A stretch of 48,325 nucleotides of DNA, taken from a virus. Lineage: Duplodnaviria; Heunggongvirae; Uroviricota; Caudoviricetes. The stretch is from the IMG/VR virus record IMGVR_UViG_2728369182_000007; one strand, written 5' to 3'. The translations under genes were made by a program, and so were the position numbers. Positions within the stretch are counted from its first letter, which is position 1, and every line of letters starts with the position of its first letter. The notes beneath the pieces were generated by a model, which had not been told where the DNA came from, searched no databases, and saw only the letters and a list, made by a program, of their open reading frames with translations. Positions 12,960 to 47,927 of this stretch are shown here, piece after piece.

Positions 12960-13654
12960 AAANNNNNNNNNNNNNNNNNNNNNNNNNNNNNNNNNNNNNN
13001 NNNNNNNNNNNNGAACTTACAGCCACTCAGGCATTTGCTGCATTTATCCTTCGTGATATCGGACGTCGGCTGATCATATTCATCCGCGACCGCCGGACCG
13101 CTATAACCGCACTCATCGCCGCGATAGGTCCAGGTGCAGGTGTTGGCCAGCATGATACGTCCCGGAAAAACAGCGCCGTCCGTTTCCGTCGGCGTGGACA
13201 GTACAAAGGAGGCACTGACCGCGCTCAGTTCGCTGCACTGCTCGATGCGCCAGCGGCTGATCACCTCCTGCTCCGGATCGGCGTCACTGTTTCCGTTGAC
13301 GAAGTTCACCGCATCCAGAAAACGGGCGTAAACCTTACGCCGGACCACCGTTCCGCCGACCAGACTCTGCAGATCTTCCGCCATCCCGGTGACCATGCCG
13401 TACAGATTAGAGACTTTAAGCGTTGGCCTAGCACTGGCTCCTTTGCCGTTCATCTCAAATCCGCTTCCCTGAATGGGATAAGCCTGATACTGCCGCCCCT
13501 GCCAGGTGACTGGTTCACCTTTTTCGTTCTGCTCATTACAGAAGAAATAACGATCTCCGCCGACCTCTGTCAGATCAATTTCCCAGAGCACGACCAGCGC
13601 GGATTGCTCCGTTTTAGTGCACTCATTGAGTGTTTCCTGCTGTATATCCTGCAT
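12956..13654 (-). CDS. L: minor tail protein L (second copy, 3' end in 50-N gap)
   Basis: MQDIQQETLNECTKTEQSALVVLWEIDLTEVGG...; gap begins at same position of L as in copy 1. Confidence 0.8.
   Translation of the reverse strand: MQDIQQETLNECTKTEQSALVVLWEIDLTEVGGDRYFFCNEQNEKGEPVTWQGRQYQAYPIQGSGFEMNGKGASARPTLKVSNLYGMVTGMAEDLQSLVGGTVVRRKVYARFLDAVNFVNGNSDADPEQEVISRWRIEQCSELSAVSASFVLSTPTETDGAVFPGRIMLANTCTWTYRGDECGYSGPAVADEYDQPTSDITKDKCSKCLSGCKFXXXXXXXXXXXXXXXXXL
12963..13012. other. assembly gap (50 N)
   Basis: run of N. Confidence 1.
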
Positions 13655-28097: not shown

Positions 28098-28172
<75 letters not shown>

Positions 28173-28175
28173 ATA

Positions 28176-28251
<76 letters not shown>

Positions 28252-28253
28252 AC

Positions 28254-28330
28254 TGGACCGCCACCGGGGACTCGAACCTCGCACTCTCAACTTAAAGGGT
28301 TGACGCTCTTTCCTGATGAGCTAGTGGCGG
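28254..28330 (-). tRNA. tRNA-like gene with anticodon loop CCUUUAA (apparent anticodon UUU, C33)
   Basis: Manual fold: acceptor CCGCCAC/GTGGCGG, D-arm, anticodon stem TCAAC/GTTGA, T-loop TTCGAGT, CCA; non-canonical C at position 33. Confidence 0.5.
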
Positions 28331-28331
28331 T

Positions 28332-28407
28332 TGGTGGCCCTTGCTGGATTTGAACCAGCGACCTGGCGATTATGAGTCGCTCGCTCTCACCACTGAGCTA
28401 AAGGGCC
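28332..28407 (-). tRNA. ileZ: tRNA-Ile2 (anticodon CAU, ileX/ileZ-like)
   Basis: Manual fold; sequence GGCCCTTTAGCTCAGTGGTGAGAGCGAGCGACTCATAATCGCCAGGTCGCTGGTTCAAATCCAGCAAGGGCCACCA closely resembles E. coli ileX as recalled. Confidence 0.75.
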
Positions 28408-28529: not shown

Positions 28530-29249
28530 TTAACGAACTCTGACTACATTAATTTCAAAGTCATCAATCTGCCCGCTATTAAGTATAACGAATGCAGAAC
28601 TCCCATTACTGTACGATTTCGATAAAACCAGACGATCATCATAGCGTGCAAGAACGTAATACCAAGTATTCTCATAGTGGATCGTCTGATATTCCCTCTT
28701 AAACTGGGGTTTATACCAACCGGCAATAAGAGAGAATGTCCAGAAATAAATCATGAATCCAGCCATAATAAACTCAATTCGGTGATGGCGAATAAAAGAC
28801 ACTTCCGAAAAACATTTGACTGAAATAAGTCTTCTTCCTGACCTGACAAAAAGCGTAATTGTAAAGGCAGCAATAACACAAAAAAACAGCACATCTGGCT
28901 CAACGTGCTGATGAATTACCGAAAACTCCAGAACAGGCGGAATAAAAAGCAGCAATATTGCCAGAAAAAGTCTGATAAAACTCAAATTCTGTATATTGTT
29001 TTTTTGTTTTATGCCTAAAAAGAAAACAATACCTACTCCCCATCCAGTAAGGAATATAACGATAACGCTCACAGCATAAAACAAACTTCGGGCCACATCA
29101 TCAACGCCAACCCCGACGATCCACCATGGAAAGCCATAGTAAAAGGAAGTCCCCCATCCATAGAAATAAGCGCTTCCCCATCCAAGACAGCCCATATAAG
29201 CAATAAAAAGTGAAGAGTTCCTCAGCAGAGTGCTGTCATCCATACCCAT
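28530..29249 (-). CDS. AT-rich polytopic membrane protein of unknown function (239 aa), cargo gene between tR' and tRNA cluster
   Basis: ORF with 4-5 predicted TM segments rich in W/Y/F/G; local GC visibly lower than flanks; no family recognised. Confidence 0.55.
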   Translation of the reverse strand: MGMDDSTLLRNSSLFIAYMGCLGWGSAYFYGWGTSFYYGFPWWIVGVGVDDVARSLFYAVSVIVIFLTGWGVGIVFFLGIKQKNNIQNLSFIRLFLAILLLFIPPVLEFSVIHQHVEPDVLFFCVIAAFTITLFVRSGRRLISVKCFSEVSFIRHHRIEFIMAGFMIYFWTFSLIAGWYKPQFKREYQTIHYENTWYYVLARYDDRLVLSKSYSNGSSAFVILNSGQIDDFEINVVRVR

Positions 29250-29488: not shown

Positions 29489-30310
29489 CTATCGCGTTAC
29501 CCTCTTTAACTGCCGCTCCGCCCATGCCTCTTCAATGTCAAACCGAACCACCAACGTATCGTAAAAGCGTTTCACTGATTTTTTCCACGTATCAAGCGTG
29601 ATAGCACTCGTCACTTTGCGTATGGCATTAAATGCCTCCGTTGATGGTAGTCTTTCATAGCCCCGACCGCCACAACGCTGGCAGTTCCTGATTACAGGCA
29701 TACCCCGTTTTTCCGACTCTTCACGATGAATGGCAACACCACGCCCACGGCAGTCTTTACAGGCAGTGGAAATCTCCCCCTTCCCTTTACATTCAGGACA
29801 AGAAACTTTCACCACCTCCCGGATTTTTTTCCATTCTTCCCAGTAAGACGGATACACACCTTTCGTACACTTTGCCCATACTGGCGGCTTGCCATCCGGA
29901 TACTGAACCTTGTTTGTAAAAACTTCGCTTTCAATAAATTTTTCCCCTCGGCAACAGGGGCACTGCTTTTTACTCGCTGCGCTGCGGGCATAATCCTCAA
30001 AAGCATACGAAGCCATAATGCGCATCACTGCCGGTTTTATTTCTGCCGGAAGTTTTCTTAACGCCGCCACGCGATCGCACTGACTTAATGCATAATCTGC
30101 CAGTAATTCTGTTGCCCGCGCCCTGTCATTCATACTAATACCCATTTTCCCCAGGAACGCAGAAAATCCCATCTCAGCCCGGTTTTGTGTCATACCCTGC
30201 GCAGCCATCACATCAGTGATGCTCAGCGCATCTTTTGACGTCGAGACGGATGCATCAGTCAGGCCTGGCGATTTTGGGGAATAGTATTTCGGTAAATCTT
30301 CCAGTCTCAT
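29489..30310 (-). CDS. late antiterminator Q-like protein
   Basis: 273 aa with multiple CxxC zinc-binding pairs, directly upstream of pR'/tR' and downstream of rusA as in DLP12/Qin prophages. Confidence 0.75.
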   Translation of the reverse strand: MRLEDLPKYYSPKSPGLTDASVSTSKDALSITDVMAAQGMTQNRAEMGFSAFLGKMGISMNDRARATELLADYALSQCDRVAALRKLPAEIKPAVMRIMASYAFEDYARSAASKKQCPCCRGEKFIESEVFTNKVQYPDGKPPVWAKCTKGVYPSYWEEWKKIREVVKVSCPECKGKGEISTACKDCRGRGVAIHREESEKRGMPVIRNCQRCGGRGYERLPSTEAFNAIRKVTSAITLDTWKKSVKRFYDTLVVRFDIEEAWAERQLKRVTR

Positions 30311-30684
30311 TTTTGGACCTGCCCGTCATGCATTATTTCGTAAATCTTCACGCCCAACCGACCACCAGGAACGAGCTGACCGCGCACAATATTGATTTCA
30401 TCAAACTGCTCGTCGTCTATAAGTAGTCCGGCATGCGTCAGCGCATCCAGTGGTGCTTTCAGGATATTGTCCAGGTCACGACGGCGCTTATCCGGTGGCT
30501 CTGCAATCACCTTTATCGCCAGCCTTCCGGACAGGTTTGATTTTAACCGCTGCCGGCGAACAATTAGCGCCACATCACGGCGATAACGCTCACCGACTTT
30601 TGATACAAAATATGTGTTGCCACGACGTCGCCAGTAAGTATTCACCGTCGGCGGATAAGGCAAAACAAACTCAATACGCATCAA
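30307..30684 (-). CDS. rusA: Holliday junction resolvase RusA
   Basis: 125 aa, MMRIEFVLPYPPTVNTYWRRRG... with conserved acidic residues; classic nin-region position. Confidence 0.85.
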   Translation of the reverse strand: MMRIEFVLPYPPTVNTYWRRRGNTYFVSKVGERYRRDVALIVRRQRLKSNLSGRLAIKVIAEPPDKRRRDLDNILKAPLDALTHAGLLIDDEQFDEINIVRGQLVPGGRLGVKIYEIMHDGQVQK

Positions 30685-30693
30685 TAACCTCTT

Positions 30694-31743
30694 TTACCCA
30701 AGCACGCCGGTTGCAAAGGCGTGATCAAGAAAACGAAAAATTAAATCAACCTGGGAACCATGCTTTTCTTCGAACGCCAGCGGATCCGCATGAAGTTCGT
30801 TGTGATGTTCCCGGCACAACGGTAGCGTGAAAATATCGTGGGCCTTTGTTCCCATCCCTCCCTGACCGTGACCAATCAGGTGATGGGGATCGTCGGCTGG
30901 CTGACCACAACACGCACACGGCTGTGTCTTCACCCAGCGCGTATATTTCTCATTTACCCAACGGCGACGTTTAGGTCGCCTCATGAAAGATTCCGGAGAG
31001 TCCGGATCAACGGCAATGCTGACCACCGCCTTTTCCAGTGGTGGGTTCTGTTGCTGGTGGAAGTGAGGCAACGGCGCAAGATTTTTTGTGCGCTGCTTTA
31101 GTATGCTGGTGGCGGTCTGCTCTCCCGGTACGATGTCGCTTTCGCGGTACACCGCGCGGATTTTTTCCGCACGTAACCCCAGAGAACGACGTAATACTGC
31201 CTCCGGAAGCGCGTCCGCCACTTGATTGCAGACCGCCCACCAGGATAATTCAGCCAGCGATAACTCCCGCTCCTGCGTGCCATTCATTGCATGGCGTATG
31301 ACGTCAATCATCCATGCTGCCAGGTTTTGTTGAGCAAGTTGCTCAAGTGATTCGGATGTCTGGTCACGCAGCTGGTTATCGCAGTGCCAGCACAACACCA
31401 TCGCGCCGGTGCCGTAACGATGTATGACGGTTTCACTGTGATGATAGTCACCATGAGGCCACTGGCAGGATTTGACATGACGCAACAGCCAGTCAGACAG
31501 TGCACCAGCGCCGCCAGCAGCACGAATCACACGCTCATTGCTGAAAAACCGCAGTAATGATTTATCCTCCGCCAGCGGCTGGCGAACGGCAGGGACGATG
31601 CCGGACGGCAGACCACGCATGCTTTTCGGTTCCGGCTCCACCAGCACTCGAGGGTTATGGAATACCTGCATGGATTCACGGCCTGGTTTAAGGACCACCA
31701 GCCCAAGTTCCGGTACCGGAACAGGTCGAAGTAATACCCGCAC
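30694..31743 (-). CDS. YdfU-like DUF968 protein
   Basis: 349 aa, C-terminal ...CACCGQPADDPHHLIGHGQGGMGTKAHD...PLCREHHNELH... motif; size and position match Qin ydfU. Confidence 0.75.
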   Translation of the reverse strand: MRVLLRPVPVPELGLVVLKPGRESMQVFHNPRVLVEPEPKSMRGLPSGIVPAVRQPLAEDKSLLRFFSNERVIRAAGGAGALSDWLLRHVKSCQWPHGDYHHSETVIHRYGTGAMVLCWHCDNQLRDQTSESLEQLAQQNLAAWMIDVIRHAMNGTQERELSLAELSWWAVCNQVADALPEAVLRRSLGLRAEKIRAVYRESDIVPGEQTATSILKQRTKNLAPLPHFHQQQNPPLEKAVVSIAVDPDSPESFMRRPKRRRWVNEKYTRWVKTQPCACCGQPADDPHHLIGHGQGGMGTKAHDIFTLPLCREHHNELHADPLAFEEKHGSQVDLIFRFLDHAFATGVLG

Positions 31744-31744
31744 G

Positions 31745-32020
31745 TTACCTCCAGATGCGTTGCTGGAATGTGCGGGACGGACGCGGTGGGCGCTCGGAGT
31801 ACGGCAGCCTGACGTAGATTATCCAGTGACGATAATCGAGGCTGAGGGCTTTCTTAACCTCGTATCCACGCCTGCGGTAACACTGAATTATCCATTCAGC
31901 CTGCTCTTCAGTGCATGGAGGATGCTGGAACCAGTCTGATTTGAATGCGTGAAAACGCCGTCCGCACCTGCTGGCAAAGACGGCAGAATCATTAGAATTG
32001 TGTAATTTGGTATCGTGCGC
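31745..32020 (-). CDS. hypothetical small protein (Rem-like position)
   Basis: Start placed at MAHDTKLH so the upstream terminator hairpin is outside the CDS; the six-frame ORF extends to 32152. Confidence 0.5.
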   Translation of the reverse strand, partial: AHDTKLHNSNDSAVFASRCGRRFHAFKSDWFQHPPCTEEQAEWIIQCYRRRGYEVKKALSLDYRHWIIYVRLPYSERPPRPSRTFQQRIWR

Positions 32021-32093
32021 CATCGGTTGTCTCTGCTGGCGCAGCAGGTGCCAGTTGTTCAGGCTGGCGTGCGAATTGTAAACCAGAATGCCA

Positions 32094-32121
32094 GGAAAAA
32101 ACAAAACCCGCCGAAGCGGGT
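32094..32121 (-). terminator. rho-independent terminator downstream of hok
   Basis: CCCGC-CGAA-GCGGG hairpin followed by TTTTGTTTTTT on minus strand. Confidence 0.6.
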
Positions 32122-32190
32122 TAAGTGCGGGTGCGTTGAGGATGCCTGACACATCAGAGGTGGCGAGGGATTTCTCCCCCGCCTGGTCTC

Positions 32191-32346
32191 TTACTCCTCA
32201 GGTTCGTAAGCTGTGAAGACAGCGACCTCCGTCTGGCCGGTTCGGATTCGTACCTCGCAGAGGTCTTTCCTCGTTACCAGTGCCGTCACTATGACGGTTA
32301 AACAGATGACGATCAGGGCGATTAACATCGCCTTTTGCTGCTTCAT
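32191..32346 (-). CDS. hok: Hok/Gef family type I toxin (HokD/RelF-like), 51 aa
   Basis: MKQQKAMLIALIVICLTVIVTALVTRKDLCEVRIRTGQTEVAVFTAYEPEE, Hok family signature with single TM and conserved Cys. Confidence 0.85.
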   Translation of the reverse strand: MKQQKAMLIALIVICLTVIVTALVTRKDLCEVRIRTGQTEVAVFTAYEPEE

Positions 32347-32583
32347 AGCCTGCTTCTCCTTGCCTTTCGGCACGTAAGAGGCTAACCTACATGTGTTCAG
32401 CATGGATTGAGCCTCAGATTAATGTTAAGCGTCTTGCAGGACGCGTAATGTTAACTGGGGCTTTTCTCTATCTGCCTTTTGGTGTTCATGCCTGAGGCAG
32501 ATAGCCTCAAGCACCCGCAGCAATTCTACTTAACTCACGTCACCTCGCCAATATGAAATCAATCAGAAAGGTGATCCATAAAA

Positions 32584-33270
32584 TCACTCCTTCTCTTCTT
32601 TTCCGTAGTGGAGTTGGCCAATTTTGATAAGAGGGCGCCCCTGAGATTTGCGGTGTAGATTGGTATCGCGCAGAGAATACACACAGCCACAATATTCCTG
32701 CTGATAGAATTTTTCGCGCTTGCTGATTTCAATCATACGGGACGAGCCGCCCTGCTTGCGCCAGTTATAATCCCAGTACACCATACCCGGATAATGCGCA
32801 ACAGCTCGCCGCCCACACTCGTTAACCTGCTGCATATTTTTCCAGCGTGAAATGCCCAGTGAACTGCTGATCACACTGAAACCATTTTCAGCAGCGTACA
32901 ACGCTGTCCGCTCAAAACGCATGTCAAAACACATGGTACAACGGATCCCCCTCTCAGGCTCCCATTCCATTCCTTTGGCACGTTCAAACCAGTTGTCGGT
33001 GTCGTAATCAGCATCGATAAACGGCACGCCGTGTTGTTCAGCAAAGCGAATATTTTCATCCTTACGAATTAAATACTCTTTCTGAGGATGAATGTTCGGG
33101 TTGTAGAAAAAGATGGTGTAGTCGATTCCCGAGGCCTGAAGCGCCTCCATCACTTCACCGGAACATGGAGCACAGCAAGAGTGCAGTAGTAGTTTGTTTG
33201 CCCCGTTTGGGAGCTCCAATTTAGGCCGTTTGAAATCAGCAATAGTCATAAATATTTTTATTGGGGTCAT
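32584..33270 (-). CDS. DUF208 / QueH-like protein (putative epoxyqueuosine reductase)
   Basis: 228 aa with N-terminal [14 protein letters not shown] motif and further conserved Cys ([16 protein letters not shown]); family assignment from memory. Confidence 0.5.
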
Positions 33271-33423
33271 GAAAATAGCACAGAGTGTAGCATCAGAGCA
33301 GGGCTATCGGGAATATATGTCTAAATCTGGTAATATCTGGTTTTGACGCAAAGCGGACAACCACGCTGGCTCTACCCTGCGCCATGAAAATGTCAATTCA
33401 CATCTGAACTAATGCTCTTTAAT

Positions 33424-33849
33424 CTAGTAACGTCTAAAATACCTAACATTTCCTTGATAAAATGCCAGTACACGCTGCATAGCTTCGCTCTTCCGGCACT
33501 CGCGACAGATTATATTCAGGCGCCTGTCGTAGCGGCGTATTTCGCCGTCTGGTAACGACCAGATAAGGTCCGGATCAACCGCAGATGGTTTATTCAGCTT
33601 TGCCCTTGAGAGCTTTTTACGGGCATTTTGCCAGTCCTTACGCGCCTGTTCAGACGGGAATAACCCGTAACCAGAGTTGTATACATCGCCACTGGCAACC
33701 AGCTCTCTGGCCAGAACGCTCATCAGATATCTTGTTGCCCCAGTTTTAGCTTCCAGTTGTCGTAACGTCTCGCGCCCACTCTGGCGTACGAGTTCAAGAA
33801 CCTGCCCTTTAATTTTTTCCCGCTCTTCTTGTGTAAAAACTTTTGCCAC
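33424..33849 (-). CDS. hypothetical protein (141 aa), repeated at 46191-46613
   Basis: ORF conserved in both nin regions. Confidence 0.5.
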   Translation of the reverse strand: MAKVFTQEEREKIKGQVLELVRQSGRETLRQLEAKTGATRYLMSVLARELVASGDVYNSGYGLFPSEQARKDWQNARKKLSRAKLNKPSAVDPDLIWSLPDGEIRRYDRRLNIICRECRKSEAMQRVLAFYQGNVRYFRRY

Positions 33850-33889
33850 AAGCCCTCCTGAAAATTACCTCATGACCAGAAATTAACAC

Positions 33890-34274
33890 TTACCCCCTGA
33901 AGCCCGGCGGAATTTCGTTATCCGGTTCAGAAATATGATTCACACAACGCTGGTTGTTCGTGCCGCTTACCGGGAGCAGCCAGGGGTTTTCAAAATTCCG
34001 GTCCGGTCCAAAAAACGTCGTCGCTCGCTGAACAAATTCCGTTCCCGTTTTCCCGGTAGCCGCCAGGTATCTTGCGTAACGCCTCACACCATCCAGCATG
34101 GCCTCTGGTGGCACCCCCTCGCGTAATCTGGCCTTCCAGGCACTGAAAGCGGATTTCTTCGGGTTTGCCCCAGCACGCAACGGGTATTCCCGCCAGACCT
34201 GTTCGAACACATCCGGATAATCCACTCGTCCCACAGGCTGCCCGGTGTTTTCCGGGACTACCCGATCGGCTTCC
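33890..34274 (-). CDS. C-terminal fragment of putative replication protein (copy of 46654-47040), truncated by gap
   Basis: Near-identical to the C-terminus of the 333-aa protein at 46654-47655; upstream end in N run. Confidence 0.5.
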
Positions 34275-34284
34275 NNNNNNNNNN
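34275..34284. other. assembly gap (10 N) joining nin-region fragment to a lysis cassette
   Basis: run of N; gene content either side is not contiguous in a phage. Confidence 1.
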
Positions 34285-41047: not shown

Positions 41048-41160
41048 TACTTAACAGAACTTTTATTTTTGACAAACATAAAATATTTTCAACAATATCC
41101 TGAGCCAGGTATATTTCAGTATAAGGCTCTGCCGGAAGGAATCTGGAAGAATGAATATAG

Positions 41161-41234
41161 CGCGCTGTACTGGATTCGAACCAGTGACCGATTGCTTAGA
41201 AGGCAATTGCTCTGTCCGGCTGAGCTAACAACGC
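41161..41234 (-). tRNA. tRNA-Arg (anticodon UCU), CCA not encoded
   Basis: Manual fold: acceptor GCGTTGT/ACAGCGC, anticodon stem ATTGC/GCAAT, loop CUUCUAA, T-arm CACTGG-TTCGAAT-CCAGT. Confidence 0.7.
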
Positions 41235-41247
41235 TGAATACCGATAA

Positions 41248-41327
41248 TGGACCGCCATCGGGGACCCGCCCCCGCACCAACAACCCTGTTATCGTGTCGT
41301 CTGCTCTTCCTGATAAGCTAATGGCGG
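41248..41327 (-). pseudogene. degenerate tRNA-like sequence (homologue of tRNA at 28254-28330)
   Basis: Shares acceptor and D-arm with the copy-1 tRNA but no pairable anticodon stem or canonical T-loop found by manual folding. Confidence 0.4.
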
Positions 41328-41334
41328 TTTGTGA

Positions 41335-41410
41335 TGGTGGCCCTTGCTGGATTTGAACCAGCGACCTGGCGATTATGAGTCGCTCGCTCTCACCACTGAG
41401 CTAAAGGGCC
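41335..41410 (-). tRNA. ileZ: tRNA-Ile2 (anticodon CAU), second copy
   Basis: Identical or near-identical to 28332-28407. Confidence 0.75.
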
Positions 41411-41449
41411 GGGAGCAGAATAATAACGGTCCGTAATTAATTCCGCAAT

Positions 41450-41472
41450 AAAAAACCCGCTCGGCGGCGGGT
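41450..41472 (-). terminator. late terminator tR' downstream of second Q
   Basis: CCCGC-TCGGCG-GCGGG hairpin plus T6 on minus strand. Confidence 0.6.
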
Positions 41473-41553
41473 TGTAGAAACTCTTCTAACGTCAGGCATA
41501 AAAAGCCCATTATTATGACGAATTTACCACAGATTCCGGAAAAATCAACCTTG

Positions 41554-42375
41554 TTACCTAGTTACCTTTTTTAACTGCCGCTCAGCCCATGCTTCTTCAA
41601 TATCAAACCGGGTCACCAGCGCATCATAGAATTTCTTAACTGTTTTTTCCCATGACGCGCGTGTTATCTGGTTTGTCACCTCGCATATAGCATTAAATGC
41701 CTCCGTTGATGGTAGTCTTTCATAGCCACGACCACCACAACGCTGGCAGTCTCTGATAACAGGCATACCACGTTTTACCGACTCTTCACGATGAATGGCG
41801 ACACCACGCCCACGGCAATCCTTACAGGCGGTGGAAACCTCACCCTTTCCGCCACACTCCGGACAGGCAACTTTTACCACCTCCCTGACTTTTTTCCATT
41901 CTTCCCAGTAAGACGAATACACACCTTTCGTACACTTTGCCCATACCGGCGGCTTACCATCCGGATACTGGACCTTGTTTGTAAAAACTACGCTTTCAAT
42001 AAATTTTTCCCCATAGCAACAAGGGCACTGCTTTTTACTCGCTGCGCTGCGGGCATAATCCTCAAAAGCGTACGAAGCCATAATGCGCATCACTACCGGT
42101 TTTATTTCTGCCGGAAGTTTTCTCAACGCCGCCACACGATCGCACCGACTGAGTGCATAATCTGCCAGTAATTCTGTTGCCCGCGCCCTGTCATTCATAC
42201 TGATGCCCATTTTCCCCAGGAACGCAGAAAAACCCATCTCAGCCCGATTCTGTGTCATGCCCTGCGCGGCCATCACATCAGTGATACTCAGCGCATCTTT
42301 TGACGTTGAGGCCGATGCATCGGTCAGGCCAGGGGATTTTGGGGAGTAGTATTTCGGTAAATCTTCCAGTTTCAT
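41554..42375 (-). CDS. late antiterminator Q-like protein (second copy)
   Basis: 273 aa, ~95 percent identical to 29489-30310 by eye. Confidence 0.75.
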   Translation of the reverse strand: MKLEDLPKYYSPKSPGLTDASASTSKDALSITDVMAAQGMTQNRAEMGFSAFLGKMGISMNDRARATELLADYALSRCDRVAALRKLPAEIKPVVMRIMASYAFEDYARSAASKKQCPCCYGEKFIESVVFTNKVQYPDGKPPVWAKCTKGVYSSYWEEWKKVREVVKVACPECGGKGEVSTACKDCRGRGVAIHREESVKRGMPVIRDCQRCGGRGYERLPSTEAFNAICEVTNQITRASWEKTVKKFYDALVTRFDIEEAWAERQLKKVTR

Positions 42376-42389
42376 TTTTTGACCTGCTC

Positions 42390-42752
42390 TTAATGCATTA
42401 TGGGGTAAATCTTCACCCCCAGACGTCCACCAGATACTGGCTGACCACGAACGATATTGATTTCATCAAACTGCTCATCGTCCATTAACACTCCCGCATG
42501 CGTCAGCGCATCCAGCGGTGCTTTCAGGATATTGTCCAGGTCGCGACGACGCTTATCCGGTGGCTCTGCAATCACCTTTATCGCCAGCCTTCCGGACAGG
42601 TTTAATTTCAGCCGCTGCTGGCGAACAATTAGCGCCACATCACGGCGATAACGCTTTCCGGCCTCCGAGATGAAATACGTATTGCCATGACGTCGCCAGT
42701 AGGTATTCACCGTCGGCGGGTAAGGCAAAACAAATTCTATGCGTTCAGTCAT
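42390..42752 (-). CDS. rusA: Holliday junction resolvase RusA (second copy)
   Basis: 120 aa, homologous to 30307-30684. Confidence 0.85.
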   Translation of the reverse strand: MTERIEFVLPYPPTVNTYWRRHGNTYFISEAGKRYRRDVALIVRQQRLKLNLSGRLAIKVIAEPPDKRRRDLDNILKAPLDALTHAGVLMDDEQFDEINIVRGQPVSGGRLGVKIYPIMH

Positions 42753-43813
42753 TCATGCTTTCCACTTCAGGACACCCGAATTTCTCGCGTGCATTAAAAA
42801 ACGAATCAGCAACAACAGCTGGCTGCCGTGTTTTTCTTCAAAATCTTTTACCCCGGCGTGCAGTTCGTTATGACATTTACGGCACAGCGGAATAACAAAC
42901 AAATCATCAGCCTTTGTTCCCATACCTCCCAGGCCATGATCAATGATGTGATGCGGATCATCTGCCTGATTACCGCACGTCATGCATTTCTGCGTTTTTA
43001 CCCAGCGCGTGTATACAGGCATCTCTTCCCGTTGTGGTTTCTGGCGCTGGAGATACTGAGCCGGAGACTCCGGATCAACGGCGATGCTTACTAACGTCTT
43101 TTCCTGGAGTGGGGGCTGTTGCTGGTGGACGTGAAGTGGCAGCGCAATATTTTTTGTGCGCTGCTTCAGTATGCTGGTGGCAGTCTGTTCTCCCGGTACG
43201 ATGTCACTCTCACGGTATACGGAGCGGATTTTTTCCACCGGTAATCCCAGTGAACGACACAATACAGACTCCGGAAGCGCATCAGCCACCTGATTGCAGA
43301 CCGCCCACCAGGATAATTCGGCCAGCGATAACTCCCTCTCCTGCGTACCGCTGATTGCGTGACGGATGACGTCAATCATCCATGCTGACAAGTTTTGGTG
43401 AGCAAGTTGCTCAAGTGATTCTGAGGTCTGGTCACACAACTGGTTGTCGCAGTGCCAGCACAACACCATTGCGCCGGTACCATAACGGTGAATGACGGTT
43501 TCACTGTGGTGATAATCACCGTGTGGCCACTGGCAGGATTTAATATGGCGCAACAGCCAGTCAGACAGTGCACCAGCGCCGCCAGCAGCACGAATCACAC
43601 GCTCATTGNNNNNNNNNNTGGCAGTAATGATTTATCCTCCGCCAGCGGCTGGCGAACGGCAGGGACGACTCCGGATGGCAGGCCGCACATGCTTTTCGGT
43701 TCCGGCTCCACCAGCACTCGAGGATTATGAAATATCTGTATGGATTCACGGCCCGGCTTAAGGACCACCAGCCCAAGCTCAGGCACCAGAACAGGTCTAA
43801 GTAATACCCGCAC
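42753..43813 (-). CDS. YdfU-like DUF968 protein (second copy, contains 10-N gap)
   Basis: Homologous to 30694-31743 on both sides of the gap. Confidence 0.7.
43609..43618. other. assembly gap (10 N)
   Basis: run of N. Confidence 1.
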
Positions 43814-43814
43814 G

Positions 43815-44087
43815 TTACCTCCAGATCCGTTGCTGGAAAGTGCGGGACGGACGTGGTGGGCGTTCGGAATAAGGCAGCCTGACAGAGATTATCCAGTGCC
43901 GATAGTCGAGACTGAGAGCTTTCTTAACCTCGAACCCGCGCCTGCGGTAAGAATGAATCAGCCATTCGGCCTGTTCTTCAGTACATGGTGGGTGTTGGTA
44001 CCAGTCGGTTTTAAATGCGTGTGAACGCCGCTCATGCCGGATGGCAAGGTCGGTATCAGAATTGTGAAATTTGGTTTTGTGCGCCAT
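43815..44087 (-). CDS. hypothetical small protein (Rem-like position), second copy
   Basis: 90 aa, homologous to 31745-32020. Confidence 0.5.
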   Translation of the reverse strand: MAHKTKFHNSDTDLAIRHERRSHAFKTDWYQHPPCTEEQAEWLIHSYRRRGFEVKKALSLDYRHWIISVRLPYSERPPRPSRTFQQRIWR

Positions 44088-44160
44088 CTGTTTTCTCTGC
44101 TGGCGCAGCAGGTGTCAGGTGTTCAGGCTGACGTGCGAATTGTAAACCAGAATGCCAGGA

Positions 44161-44190
44161 AAAAACAAAACCCGCCGAAGCGGGTTAAGT
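44161..44190 (-). terminator. rho-independent terminator downstream of hok (second copy)
   Basis: Same hairpin and U-tract as 32094-32121. Confidence 0.6.
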
Positions 44191-44254
44191 GCGGGTGCGT
44201 TGAGGATGCCTGACACATCAGAGGTGGCGAGGGATTTCTCCCCCGCCTGGTCTC

Positions 44255-44410
44255 TTACTCCTCAGGTTCGTAAGCTGTGAAGACAGCGACCTCCGTCTGG
44301 CCGGTTCGGATTCGTACCTCGCAGAGGTCTTTCCTCGTTACCAGTGCCGTCACTATGACGGTTAAACAGATGACGATCAGGGCGATTAACATCGCCTTTT
44401 GCTGCTTCAT
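44255..44410 (-). CDS. hok: Hok/Gef family type I toxin (second copy)
   Basis: Nucleotide sequence identical to the hok CDS at 32191-32346 over the compared stretch; ATG at 44408-44410. Confidence 0.8.
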   Translation of the reverse strand: MKQQKAMLIALIVICLTVIVTALVTRKDLCEVRIRTGQTEVAVFTAYEPEE

Positions 44411-44668
44411 AGCCTGCTTCTCCTTGACCTTTCGGTCCGTAAGAGGCTAATCTCTATGTGTCGCATAGATATGGCCTCAGATTAATGTTAAGCGTCTTGC
44501 AGGACGCGTAATGTTAACTGGGGCTTTTCTCTATCTGCCTTTTGGTGTTCATGCCTGAGACAGATAGCCTCAAGCACCCGCAGTCATTCTACTTAACTAA
44601 GATTTCCCCGCAAACCGTTTTTGTCCGGCACAGTAAATATCCAACTAAACCAATGGCGTTCGCTGTAT

Positions 44669-44848
44669 TTACCGCCAGTATTCAATGCACATGACCGCCA
44701 TGAACACCCCTAAAAAAAGGGCATTTATATATCCAAATATTAATATCAAAACATCAACTTTTTCCATATACCTTGCTGTGAAGATGATGGGCATACATGA
44801 TACGAACAACCAGAACGCAACAAACAAAAACTGCAATGCGTTTTTCAT
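44669..44848 (-). CDS. small two-TM membrane protein (59 aa), AT-rich
   Basis: ATG at 44846-44848 preceded by AGGAGG; MKNALQFLFVAFWLFVSCMPIIFTARYMEKVDVLILIFGYINALFLGVFMAVMCIEYWR. Confidence 0.5.
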   Translation of the reverse strand: MKNALQFLFVAFWLFVSCMPIIFTARYMEKVDVLILIFGYINALFLGVFMAVMCIEYWR

Positions 44849-45077
44849 TATTCCTCCTACAATCAATGTGCAATTACATTTAAACACACCTCAGTTTGGC
44901 CGGACATATAAATATCTAAACCAGAAAAAATCACTTACATAGCGTTACAAACTCTTTAGTCTAAATATTCATCGTAAAACATTCCCCATACTTATCAGCC
45001 CGTTCTGCGCCAGGTAGCTCATTGCCTTATCTGGGAATCTGTAATCAGGTTTCCGGATGCTGGTGGATTTTCGCGTT

Positions 45078-45335
45078 TTAGTTGTTCATAAAAGTGCACA
45101 GCTTTAACCAGTTCTTCTGATGTAACCGGGACTGGCGAGGCAGTGAATAAGGCCTGAATTTCATAGTTCGGCCTGTCGTTACAATCCTCTTTTTTCGGTA
45201 CATATTTCCAGTCACCAGACCACTACTTCCCCTGAAAGTCCGTAACGCCTTTTTTTTCACGTAGCGATATCGCCATGCCACTGTTTTTGCTTGCCCCGCC
45301 GTTTCATGCCCTTCCTGATAATTAACCTCGCTCAT
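45078..45335 (-). CDS. hypothetical basic protein (85 aa)
   Basis: ORF only; weak support. Confidence 0.25.
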   Translation of the reverse strand: MSEVNYQEGHETAGQAKTVAWRYRYVKKKALRTFRGSSGLVTGNMYRKKRIVTTGRTMKFRPYSLPRQSRLHQKNWLKLCTFMNN

Positions 45336-45341
45336 TCATCG

Positions 45342-45508
45342 CCCCACTCATCACAATATGCTTCGACCGGAGTTTTTCCTGCTTCATAATCATCACGCCA
45401 TGCTTCAGCATCAGCAGCACTGCCACCACGTAACTCTGCATAGTCCATTAACAGTTCATGCCATTCTTCAAAACTGACGTTGTATTTAGTTGAACCAAAA
45501 TCAGCCAT
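45342..45508 (-). CDS. hypothetical small acidic protein (55 aa)
   Basis: ATG at 45506-45508 overlapping stop of upstream ORF; MADFGSTKYNVSFEEWHELLMDYAELRGG... Confidence 0.35.
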
Positions 45509-45683
45509 TTTGTTCTTCCTCTTTGTCTTTTATTTCGTGATATGAGTAATTGCAGTAGTTAAAGAAAATATCTTTTGCTTCGTCATGTATTTCATCAGGC
45601 GTCGCATCATCATCCACTTCGAATTCATCCTCGAAATCTCCACCGGCTATTCCCGTTTCAATAATTATTTTAAACTTTCGCAT
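45501..45683 (-). CDS. hypothetical small acidic protein (60 aa)
   Basis: ORF MRKFKIIIETGIAGGDFEDEFEVDDDATPDEIHDEAKDIFFNYCNYSYHEIKDKEEEQNG. Confidence 0.35.
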   Translation of the reverse strand: MRKFKIIIETGIAGGDFEDEFEVDDDATPDEIHDEAKDIFFNYCNYSYHEIKDKEEEQNG

Positions 45684-45776
45684 TTAACTACCGCCCTTTC
45701 GGGCGGCCTCCTGATGTTCTGAGGGTGCAGAAATCCCTCCGGTTAAGGATTAAATTTTTAACAGAGCTAAATTTAA

Positions 45777-46133
45777 TTATTCAGTTCTGGATTTTGTCGC
45801 CCTGCGTATCCGCGCTTTCGCGTTACGCTCAATCTGAATTAGCTTTTCTATATTTTTTCGCCTTTCCCGCTCCTCCTGACGCAAGAGCCTTACATCATCT
45901 GCCAGTCTGGTTTCTCTTTTCGCCACAGAGAGCATCCAGTCAAATGGCTCCACAACTGCACCGCAGATTTTACAGCGGACCTGACGCTCTTTTTCGTCAA
46001 CCCGGACAGAGGCGTGATGACAATATGGTCTTTCCGATGGCTCATAAAGAAAATTAACCTGATTACGAGGGTCATCCTCTTTTACCGGAAATAAAACGAT
46101 ATTGCTTAACTCATCCTCTGGTTTTATTTCCAT
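45777..46133 (-). CDS. hypothetical protein with Cys/His cluster (about 118 aa)
   Basis: Start placed at MEIKPEDELSN...; CHH...CKICG motif suggests a zinc ribbon. Confidence 0.4.
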   Translation of the reverse strand: MEIKPEDELSNIVLFPVKEDDPRNQVNFLYEPSERPYCHHASVRVDEKERQVRCKICGAVVEPFDWMLSVAKRETRLADDVRLLRQEERERRKNIEKLIQIERNAKARIRRATKSRTE

Positions 46134-46190
46134 GCTCCTCTCCTTTGATGCGAATGCCAGCGGTAATTGAAGCCTGATAGCTAATTTCAC

Positions 46191-46613
46191 TCACAGTACC
46201 GCCTCCTGAAAATTACCCTGATAGAAAGCCAGTACACGCTGCATAGCTTCACTCTTCCGGCACTCGCGACAGATTATGTTTAGGCGACTGTCGTAGCGAC
46301 GTATTTCTCCGTCAGGTAACGACCAGATAAGGTCCGGATCAACCACAACCGGTTTCTTCAGCTTTGCCCTCGATAATTTTTTGCGGGCATTTTGCCAGTC
46401 TTTACGAGCCTGTTCAGACGGGAATAACCCGTAGCCAGAATTGTATACATCGCCACTGGCAACCAGCTCTCTGGCCAGAACGCTCATCAGATATCTTGTT
46501 GCCCCAGTTTTAGCTTCCAGTTGTCGTAACGTCTCGCGCCCACTCTGGCGTACGAGTTCAAGAACCTGCCCTTTAATTTTTTCCCGCTCTTCTTGTGTAA
46601 AAACTTTTGCCAC
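46191..46613 (-). CDS. hypothetical protein (140 aa), copy of 33424-33849
   Basis: Near-identical ORF. Confidence 0.5.
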   Translation of the reverse strand: MAKVFTQEEREKIKGQVLELVRQSGRETLRQLEAKTGATRYLMSVLARELVASGDVYNSGYGLFPSEQARKDWQNARKKLSRAKLKKPVVVDPDLIWSLPDGEIRRYDSRLNIICRECRKSEAMQRVLAFYQGNFQEAVL

Positions 46614-46653
46614 AAGCCCTCCTGAAAATTACCTCATGACCAGAAATTAACAC

Positions 46654-47927
46654 TTACCCCCTGAAGCCCGGCGGAATTTCGTTATCCGGTTCAGAAATAT
46701 GATTCACACAACGCTGGTTGTTCGTGCCGCTTACCGGGAGCAGCCAGGGGTTTTCAAAATTCCGGTCCGGTCCAAAAAACGTCGTCGCTCGCTGAACAAA
46801 TTCCGTTCCCGTTTTCCCGGTAGCCGCAAGGTATCTTGCGTAACGCCTCACGCCATCCAGCATGGCCTCTGGTGGCACCCCCTCGCGTAATCTGGCTTTC
46901 CAGGCACTGAAAGCGGATTTCTTCGGGTTTGCCCCGGCACGCAACGGGTATTCCCGCCAGACCTGTTCGAACACATCAGGATAATCCACTCGTCCCACAG
47001 GCTGCCCGGTGTTTTCCGGGACTACCCGATCGGCTTCCCGCTGAATGGCGGAATCGGCTTCAGGCTGCTGAAGTTGGTGTGATTGCTCCTGCCTTGCGGT
47101 CATCACCTGCTGCACAGCGCCCGAATCGGCTTTCAGCGCATACGCTGAATCGGCTTCCGGTGTCGTGCCTGCTGGCTGACCAAGATTGACGGTCTGAACA
47201 TCCCCTGCCTGGTTCGTGGCGTTTTTTACGCCATGGACCATAGTGTNNNNNNNNNNGGGCTGGCCAGGAGTGACGGTCTGAACATCCCCTGCCTGGTTCG
47301 TGGCGTTTTTTACGCCATGGACCATAGTGTTTTGATCTTCTTGATCTGTATCTTTATCTGTATCTTTATCTGTCGTGACTCGTCGTGACATGTGCGTGAC
47401 ATTTCGTGACGCGCCGTGACAATCGCCATTTTGTTCCCGCTTTCTTTCCCTCTCTCGCTGCGCCCTCTTGCGCTCTGCAGGAGATTTTGCGGTTTGCGAA
47501 ATATTGCCGTTGTCCTCTTTAAGCACCTGGCGTTTTTCCCATCCAGTGATTAAATCACCATCAAGTACCCGCCCCTGCATCNNNNNNNNNNCGGAGATTT
47601 TGCGGTTTGCGAAATATTGCCGTTGTCCTCTTTCAGCACCTGGCGTTTTTCCCATCCAGTGATTAAATCACCATCAAGTACCCGCCCCTGCATCGTCTGC
47701 AAAATTGAATCAATTACCTCTTCTGTCACGTCGAGCGCACTTGCCAAATCTTCTGTCGTGACATCAATGTGACCTCGCGTGACATTTCGTGACGCGCTCA
47801 CCAGGAGGTGGATATACACTGCCATCACTGTTGCAATTGGCTGCCCTGACACCCTGGCAATTGTTCGCCACTTAGGGTCATTTGGCATGTCATGCCATAA
47901 TCTGAGCCAGGCGTTAGCCATACTCAC
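46654..47927 (-). CDS. putative phage replication initiator / replisome organiser (split by two 10-N gaps)
   Basis: N-terminal MSMANAWLRLWHDMPNDPKWRTIARVSG... region; internal iteron arrays; gaps at 47247-47256 and 47582-47591 are flanked by duplicated sequence. Confidence 0.4.
47247..47256. other. assembly gap (10 N) flanked by direct duplicate of about 50 bp
   Basis: run of N; ctgaacatcccctgcctggttcgtggcgttttttacgccatggaccatagtgt present on both sides. Confidence 1.
47373..47420. repeat. iteron-like array: five CGTGAC motifs phased at 10 bp
   Basis: tCGTGACtcgtCGTGACatgtgCGTGACatttCGTGACgcgcCGTGAC; preceded by tandem tctttatctgta repeat at 47345-47372. Confidence 0.6.
47582..47591. other. 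assembly gap (10 N) flanked by direct duplicate of about 110 bp
   Basis: 47468-47581 repeats 47592-47705 almost exactly. Confidence 1.
47756..47792. repeat. second iteron-like array: four (C)GTGAC motifs phased at 10 bp
   Basis: tCGTGACatcaatGTGACctcgCGTGACatttCGTGAC plus inverted GTCACG at 47726-47731. Confidence 0.55.

Follow-up and report, generated by a model that had tools for sequence, protein, structure and literature searches.

A QueH-type epoxyqueuosine reductase gene as probable cargo in the nin region of a lambdoid Escherichia coli prophage

The gene queH at positions 32584–33249 of the virus record IMGVR_UViG_2728369182_000007 (Caudoviricetes; 48,325 nucleotides, the whole stretch of DNA analyzed, here called the window) most probably encodes a functional, cobalamin-independent epoxyqueuosine reductase and belongs to the cargo of a Rac/Qin-like lambdoid Escherichia coli prophage, in whose nin region it lies. 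We assign a probability of about 75% to this reading. Ten runs of N interrupt the window, which is a draft scaffold of E. coli. The gene is encoded on the minus strand, as are all genes and signals of this prophage whose positions are given below. Research on queuosine in E. coli takes the last step of its synthesis to be catalyzed by one enzyme only, the cobalamin-dependent QueG. If the prophage QueH is active, about 18% of the sequenced E. coli would be able to make queuosine without vitamin B12. The enzyme itself is known, and its gene is frequent and carries its name in annotations already; what is new is the genomic setting.

The Prophage Gene Encodes a Predicted Full-Length QueH

An earlier sequence-only reading of the segment 32191–33270 had assigned the gene to the QueH family (PF02677/IPR003828, formerly DUF208) based on its cysteine motifs, and a profile search confirmed this assignment. 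The Pfam model PF02677 matches with 221.5 bits at a cut-off of 23.5 and is covered over its full length (profile positions 1–174 of 175). No NCBIfam model matched at E ≤ 0.01, though RefSeq records name the protein. The longest open reading frame (ORF) spans 32584–33270 and encodes 228 amino acids, as had been described. Its first ATG is not the likely start: the conserved start is probably the second ATG at 33249, corresponding to M8 and resulting in a protein of 221 amino acids. This is the start used by RefSeq in the identical gene of E. coli IHE3034, the homologous proteins of other genera have their start at the equivalent methionine, and in one prophage allele (L085) an in-frame TAA precedes the M8 ATG by three codons, all of which argues for M8.

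The early motif noted in the sequence-only reading corresponds to residues 27–37 of the 228-residue ORF. Conservation of the cysteines was surveyed in 67 sequences, comprising the QueH of the window, QueH from Thermotoga maritima and 65 near-full-length representatives, which were drawn from 1.84 billion cluster representatives and are 37–77% identical to the QueH of the window. The residues C32, C33, C111, C114, C194, and C196 (numbering of the 228-residue ORF) are invariant in these diverse sequences. Position 36, which follows CCAP, is a cysteine in 63 of the 67 sequences and an aspartate in the other four including T. maritima; the CCAPC motif of the prophage protein is thus the common form and no deviation. 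The metal-ligand cysteine pattern of CCxP[C/D], CxxC, and CGC is present. In agreement with the survey, an alignment of 40 QueH sequences has 16 invariant columns, all retained in the window (C25, C26, C29, N52, Y59, R62, E99, R103, C104, C107, R111, K137, Q184, C187, G188, and C189 in the numbering of the 221-residue protein).

T. maritima QueH (PDB 7LC5, 7LC7, 9DEU) is the structurally characterized relative, and the proposed comparison with this enzyme bore out the conservation of all cysteines that act as Fe-S ligands. The sequence match to 7lc5 has an E-value of 8e-22, and both proteins share the same six cysteines and the other invariant residues; they are only approximately 31% identical. 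An AlphaFold model of the prophage protein, calculated from the 40-sequence alignment, reached a predicted local distance difference test (pLDDT) score of 95.8. In a Foldseek search with this model the five best PDB matches were all T. maritima QueH, with root-mean-square deviations (rmsd) of 1.2–2.0 Å and target-normalized template modeling (TM) scores of 0.90–0.92; for the top entries 9d86 and 7lc5 the rmsd is 1.2 Å, over 179 columns, and the TM score 0.92. Further differences were found. T. maritima QueH has an aspartate (D13) after CCAP, for which the structure of a D13N mutant was deposited, where the prophage protein has a cysteine, and the prophage protein is extended by approximately 20 residues at the C-terminus. 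Judged from sequence and model, the prophage thus encodes a full-length QueH with all family-invariant residues and the predicted QueH fold.

The Gene Is Located in the Nin Region of a Lambdoid Prophage

Positions 13014–34274 of the window are 99.8% identical (blastn) to a lambdoid prophage of E. coli IHE3034, a neonatal-meningitis strain in which it is located beside a tRNA-Ser gene and mtfA according to the RefSeq annotation. This establishes that queH is prophage-borne, as had been assumed in the sequence-only reading. In the order of transcription the prophage encodes the repressor region, YdaT, a replication gene, DUF977, queH, hokD, and a small hypothetical protein, followed by DUF968, RusA, the antiterminator Q, four tRNAs, the lysis genes, and the structural genes. 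The locus is a lambdoid nin-type region and the prophage is Rac/Qin-like. The upstream neighbor DUF977 (33424–33849; Pfam DUF977, 100.4 bits) matches the PHROGs family phrog_142, annotated as Ren-like exclusion protein. The proposal that queH occupies the position at which Qin-like prophages carry relBE upstream of hokD also proved correct: in K-12 Qin, relB-relE is found in the same slot, immediately upstream of hokD, and is followed by hokD and rem/ydfU (DUF968)/ydfT (Q) in the same kind of prophage. The cargo differs, as Qin carries a type II toxin-antitoxin pair while the prophage of the window carries a gene for a tRNA-modification enzyme.

The IMG/VR scan yielded 215 relatives, and the best 80 of these 215 all come from E. 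coli prophages and are 100% identical, for which reason the scan says little on other phage lineages. Among these 80 loci, DUF977 immediately precedes queH in 75 with a spacing of approximately 180 nt. In the other prophage copies examined queH is the first sizeable cargo gene after DUF977; in some of them a methyltransferase fragment or a small ORF on the opposite strand lies between the two genes. Sister prophages encode complete defense systems directly downstream of queH (L086 2153–3792; L119 6225–7959; L163 6226–7982; L087 1806–3816), which PADLOC assigns to Kiwa (KwaA and KwaB), two RosmerTA variants and a type II restriction-modification system of the Dcm/NgoMIV type. Insertion sequence (IS) elements and lipoprotein genes were found there as well. 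As the defense systems follow directly on queH, the interval from DUF977 to DUF968 of these lambdoid prophages is a hotspot for defense and cargo genes. The variable slot expected for a moron gene is seen here: queH is missing from K-12 Qin and from the corresponding slot of a second prophage fragment in the window, and it is present with varied neighbors in the sister prophages.

QueH Is Widespread in E. coli and Present on Plasmids

The gene was found in 995 of 5426 complete E. coli genomes, nearly always as one chromosomal copy, and at least 80% of queH is present in 985 of the 995. All of them are labeled "epoxyqueuosine reductase QueH" by RefSeq. The whole segment consisting of the DUF977 end, queH, and hok occurs in 741 E. 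coli genomes. Lineages of extraintestinal pathogenic E. coli (ExPEC) such as IHE3034 are among the carriers, as are some O157:H7 strains. That the gene would be unusual, as suggested initially, does not hold in view of its frequency, its RefSeq name and the presence of the same cassette on IncF plasmids.

The closest relatives are ordinary chromosomal QueH proteins from Scandinavium (92% identity), Kluyvera (91%), and Enterobacter (88–90%). The identity is 79–86% in Erwinia, Photorhabdus, Providencia, and Serratia and still 75–80% in Sphingomonas, Stenotrophomonas, and Pseudomonas, making this an unusually well-conserved family. Among the best 80 species-representative loci the DUF977-queH-hok context is found in E. 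albertii alone; in the remaining ones queH stands alone among chromosomal genes. In PLSDB 302 plasmid records contain a QueH homologue, including plasmids of Bacillus, Ligilactobacillus, and Acinetobacter. IncF plasmids of Klebsiella and Salmonella encode a stand-alone QueH with 89–96% identity (L169 4946–5614; L170 6001–6669; L171 6001–6669), and of these three plasmids two are conjugative and one is mobilizable. Taken together, the QueH proteins of Scandinavium, Kluyvera, Enterobacter, and the Klebsiella IncF plasmids are 88–92% identical to the prophage protein and encoded by stand-alone genes. They differ from it in having ordinary gene neighbors, whereas queH of the window lies between DUF977 and hok in a lambdoid prophage.

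Of the isolated phages in GenBank only HannyBb carries a close copy of QueH (96.8% protein identity), annotated as hypothetical protein. The PHROGs family phrog_3217, listed with unknown function, corresponds to QueH; its profile matches from the internal Met34 onward, i.e., residues 34–221 (window 32584–33150), and does not cover the metal-binding CCAPC motif. As the match begins at this internal methionine, phage annotations often seem to call a truncated ORF that is devoid of the CCAPC motif.

queH Forms a Small Cassette With a Conserved Upstream Motif

Comparison by blastn with prophages that have different flanking sequences revealed sharp limits of homology. It starts at 33365 (L002, L084) or 33298 (L085), 50–116 nt before the start codon, and ends at 32578–32580, 4–6 nt past the queH stop codon. 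These limits indicate that the unit of exchange is queH together with its own upstream region, giving a cassette of approximately 0.8 kb. The upstream part that moves with the gene between prophage backgrounds covers 33250–33365.

An alignment of the 160 nt preceding the start in 13 prophage, plasmid and chromosomal copies revealed an extended −10 motif, TGCTACACT (TGn + TACACT), at 33284–33292, 34 nt upstream of the M8 ATG, which occurs once in the window. The block TGCTACA(C/A)T holds the sole invariant run of columns besides the start codon, while the flanking sequence diverges beyond alignment. The GCTAC core does not vary among the 13 copies, TGCTACAMT as a whole is essentially conserved in them, and its distance from the ATG is fixed (−42 to −44 in the copies other than the window). 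The chromosomal and plasmid genes of other Enterobacterales thus share the motif and its distance from the start with the prophage gene. Related TGnTAnnnT motifs are present at −37 to −45 in Symbiopectobacterium, Acerihabitans, and Arsenophonus. The motif is a putative extended −10 promoter (TGn + TACAMT), and its retention in all 13 copies suggests that queH is a self-transcribed cargo gene.

The prophage alleles of queH are under strong purifying selection: the ratio of nonsynonymous to synonymous divergence (dN/dS) is 0.04–0.05, with dS values of up to 0.45 relative to the copy of the window and no stop codons.

Host QueG, Cobalamin, and the Proposed Role of the Prophage QueH

QueG and QueH perform the same step, the last one in queuosine synthesis on tRNA (PMC5372724), using distinct cofactors (PMC13443448), and QueG was listed among the cobamide-dependent enzymes of E. 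coli (PMC11841063). QueG (YjeS) and QueH are encoded in the same genomes for the same reaction, with the differences that they belong to unrelated protein families, that QueG is cobalamin-dependent and that it is core chromosomal and not mobile. With a 70-nt probe queG was detected in 5402 of the 5426 E. coli genomes, so queH provides a second enzyme for the last step and no replacement. E. coli does not synthesize cobalamin de novo, and a study by Frey et al. in J Bacteriol from 1988 reportedly found that E. coli grown without B12 accumulates epoxyqueuosine.

In the reading that we favor, queH would be transcribed in the lysogen from its own promoter, and after induction the early rightward transcript would additionally read through into it. 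Using a [4Fe-4S] cluster and an adjacent iron, QueH would reduce epoxyqueuosine (oQ) to queuosine (Q) at position 34 of the host tRNA-Asp, tRNA-Asn, tRNA-His, and tRNA-Tyr, and it would work in parallel with the core QueG as a B12-independent back-up. As QueG needs cobalamin and E. coli cannot make it, the lysogen would gain a B12-independent route to mature queuosine. The carriage on plasmids and the conserved putative promoter of the gene suggest a benefit at the level of the host, which fits the spread of the cassette on conjugative plasmids.

The sequence-only reading had regarded the enzyme and the tRNAs encoded by the element as one translational-tuning module. Queuosine is incorporated into GUN anticodons. 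The prophage tRNA array at 28098–28407 (ARAGORN) comprises Ile2(CAU), which is a tRNA for Ile in the RefSeq annotation as well, together with Lys(UUU), Thr(UGU), and Gly(UCC), and the array of the second prophage fragment (41160–41410) comprises Ile2 and Arg(UCU). No GUN anticodon is present among the tRNAs of either fragment, so QueH can only act on the host tRNA-Asp, -Asn, -His, and -Tyr and the idea of a joint module had to be abandoned. The codons read by the prophage tRNAs, i.e., AUA, ACA/ACG, GGA/GGG, and AGA/AGG, are 2–5 times more common in the IHE3034 prophage genes than in 29 host genes, and such a codon match is the usual explanation for phage-encoded tRNAs.

Several points weigh against the favored reading. 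A Shine-Dalgarno sequence was found before neither of the two ATG codons of queH. The consensus promoter scan, which looks for −35 and −10 elements, returned nothing upstream of queH on the minus strand; since it demands a −35 hexamer, it would miss an extended −10 promoter. The terminator scan found none between the queH stop codon (32584) and the hok promoter (32551), where a moron would carry a terminator of its own. Some B12-independent isozymes have a cobalamin or preQ1 riboswitch in their leader; the Rfam E-value scan of 31500–34270 returned only sok and two weak sub-threshold hits and no such riboswitch in the leader of queH. The benefit of B12-independence is derived from established knowledge on QueG and QueH, and to our knowledge no functional difference between oQ-tRNA and Q-tRNA is known in E. 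coli. In the literature searched on QueH or epoxyqueuosine in phages or prophages no paper on a prophage QueH was found.

A wider reading, which we hold only tentatively, is that queH constitutes a small self-promoted mobile cassette that spreads within the Enterobacteriaceae by way of lambdoid prophages and IncF plasmids because it uncouples queuosine maturation from the supply of cobalamin. If so, this would be a lysogenic-conversion trait that alters tRNA modification and the decoding of NAU and NAC codons in about one fifth of E. coli strains, with an effect to be expected in B12-poor niches such as urine or blood. A more remote variant would have the oQ/Q state also alter the outcome of phage infection or the attack by anticodon nucleases. 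If the prophage QueH is active, measurements of the Q/oQ ratio, queG mutants and B12-limitation experiments in natural isolates would have to be read differently, and the gene would be a clear case of a tRNA-modification enzyme that is spread as prophage and plasmid cargo. The existing annotation is extended here by the putatively self-promoted cassette that prophages and plasmids have in common and by the implication that approximately 18% of E. coli would synthesize queuosine independently of B12.

The queG gene of IHE3034 itself is annotated as a frameshifted pseudogene by RefSeq, with one T lost (TTT to TT) at codon 89 (L083 at about 7880; NC_017628.1 4817852–4817921). Either a sequencing error or a mutation specific to the strain may account for this; if real, the strain would depend on the prophage QueH for queuosine.

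Alternative Explanations

An unlikely alternative to a cobalamin-independent back-up for the host is a function in the lytic cycle: QueH, expressed with the delayed-early genes, would raise the queuosine content of host tRNAs and thereby favor translation of the NAU-rich late genes of the phage. The orientation of queH along with the early rightward genes and the lack of a terminator upstream are in line with this, and infection of Shewanella by a phage was reported to raise queG expression and the Q/oQ ratio (preprint 10.64898/2026.03.05.709803). The NAU/(NAU+NAC) ratio is indeed 0.647 in the late genes of the IHE3034 prophage (L001) compared to 0.511 in 29 IHE3034 chromosomal genes. However, this excess goes along with the lower G+C of phage genes and is neither specific nor decisive, there is no evidence that oQ and Q differ in decoding, and the tRNAs of the prophage are no substrates for queuosine modification. 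The same cassette with its upstream motif is moreover found on conjugative plasmids and chromosomes, where no lytic cycle exists. That queH is a neutral passenger without function in E. coli, acquired by illegitimate recombination and hitch-hiking on successful prophages, is considered improbable. E. coli already has queG and the slot gathers varied cargo including IS elements, which would speak for a passenger, but the low dN/dS values in alleles with up to 45% difference at synonymous sites, the intact reading frame in nearly all of the 995 genomes and the retention of all catalytic and ligand residues are at odds with it.

The neighborhood of queH in the sister prophages, with complete Kiwa, RosmerTA and type II restriction-modification systems right behind the gene, could be taken to indicate a factor in defense or counter-defense or an enzyme whose substrate is 7-deazaguanine in DNA and not tRNA. 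The use of the queuosine precursor pathway by phages in DNA modification is known (PMC6884629). Phage-borne 7-deazaguanine clusters (FolE/QueD/QueE/QueC with DpdA) resemble the prophage of the window in carrying genes of the queuosine pathway (PMC6884629, PMC10516641), and differ in that preQ0-type bases are made and put into DNA by a transglycosylase. The prophage instead has a single late-pathway gene for an enzyme acting on a base already present in tRNA, and the annotation of the IHE3034 prophage (99.8% identity) shows neither a DpdA/Tgt-like gene nor one for preQ0 synthesis, which makes a role in DNA modification unlikely. We know of no oQ-type DNA modification. With no PADLOC family matching QueH at E ≤ 0.01 and an identity of approximately 79–92% to ordinary chromosomal QueH, defense or DNA modification is a highly improbable function of the gene. 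Least probable of all is a non-orthologous replacement, in which queH lineages would lose queG. The frameshift in IHE3034 queG would be the expected sign, but this allele occurs in one of the 5402 genomes only, and the queH-positive strains EC9682, W224N, and FDAARGOS_1301 are intact at the codon-89 site. A lineage-wide loss of queG in queH carriers was therefore rejected, as the frameshift is unique to IHE3034 and queG was detected nearly throughout.

The hok/sok Module and Further Features of the Window

Downstream of queH lies a hok/sok type I toxin-antitoxin module (32191–32516), identified by Rfam RF01794, Pfam HOK_GEF and the RefSeq annotation of HokD (WP_000813254.1) in IHE3034. The sequence-only reading had placed a hok toxin next to queH, which is correct for the module and its position; the 70-residue ORF itself (32191–32403; HOK_GEF, 81.6 bits) is the mok frame, and Hok is encoded by the overlapping 51-residue ORF at 32191–32346, annotated by RefSeq as HokD in IHE3034. 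The hok leader and sok region at 32341–32516 matches RF01794 with 120.5 bits at a gathering score of 59. A promoter-like site for the hok mRNA, TTGGCG-17-TAGAAT, is located at 32523–32551; its −35 hexamer begins 32 nt past the queH stop codon and the sok/hok leader model begins just downstream at 32516. The transcript would be ended by an intrinsic terminator-like hairpin at 32105–32122 (7-bp stem, five GC pairs, T run). As judged from these elements, i.e., the Hok peptide, the overlapping mok frame, the sok region, and the terminal hairpin, the module is complete, and it is a separate, self-contained unit next to queH. Some sister prophages carry queH without hok, or other genes between the two. 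The hok terminator hairpin is overlapped at 32101–32182 by a weak Rfam match to IsrK, an sRNA from a Salmonella prophage, which stays below the threshold (27.2 bits, gathering score 50).

The conserved downstream genes of the nin region together span 29489–32023 and were assigned by Pfam, PHROGs and the RefSeq annotation of IHE3034. They encode a 92-residue hypothetical protein (31745–32023), DUF968/HNH (30694–31743), RusA (30307–30684), and the antiterminator Q (29489–30310). On the other side, a run of ten N at 34275–34284 interrupts the replication gene upstream of DUF977 and abuts the lysis genes of a second lambdoid prophage. This second fragment has its own copies of Q, RusA, DUF968, hok, and DUF977 (41448–47246), which are 86–97% identical to those of the first. 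Its slot from DUF977 to hok (44255–46613, minus strand), defined by the ORF list and by internal comparison with blastn, which leaves a gap at the position of queH, contains five small ORFs of 137, 60, 58, 85, and 72 residues at 44411–46190 in place of queH. Three of these match PHROGs of unknown function, two are without a match. Between the antiterminator Q and the tRNA array of the first prophage a protein of 239 residues is encoded (28530–29249), which matched only PHROGs of unknown function and, very weakly, AbiC in PADLOC (E 0.0037).

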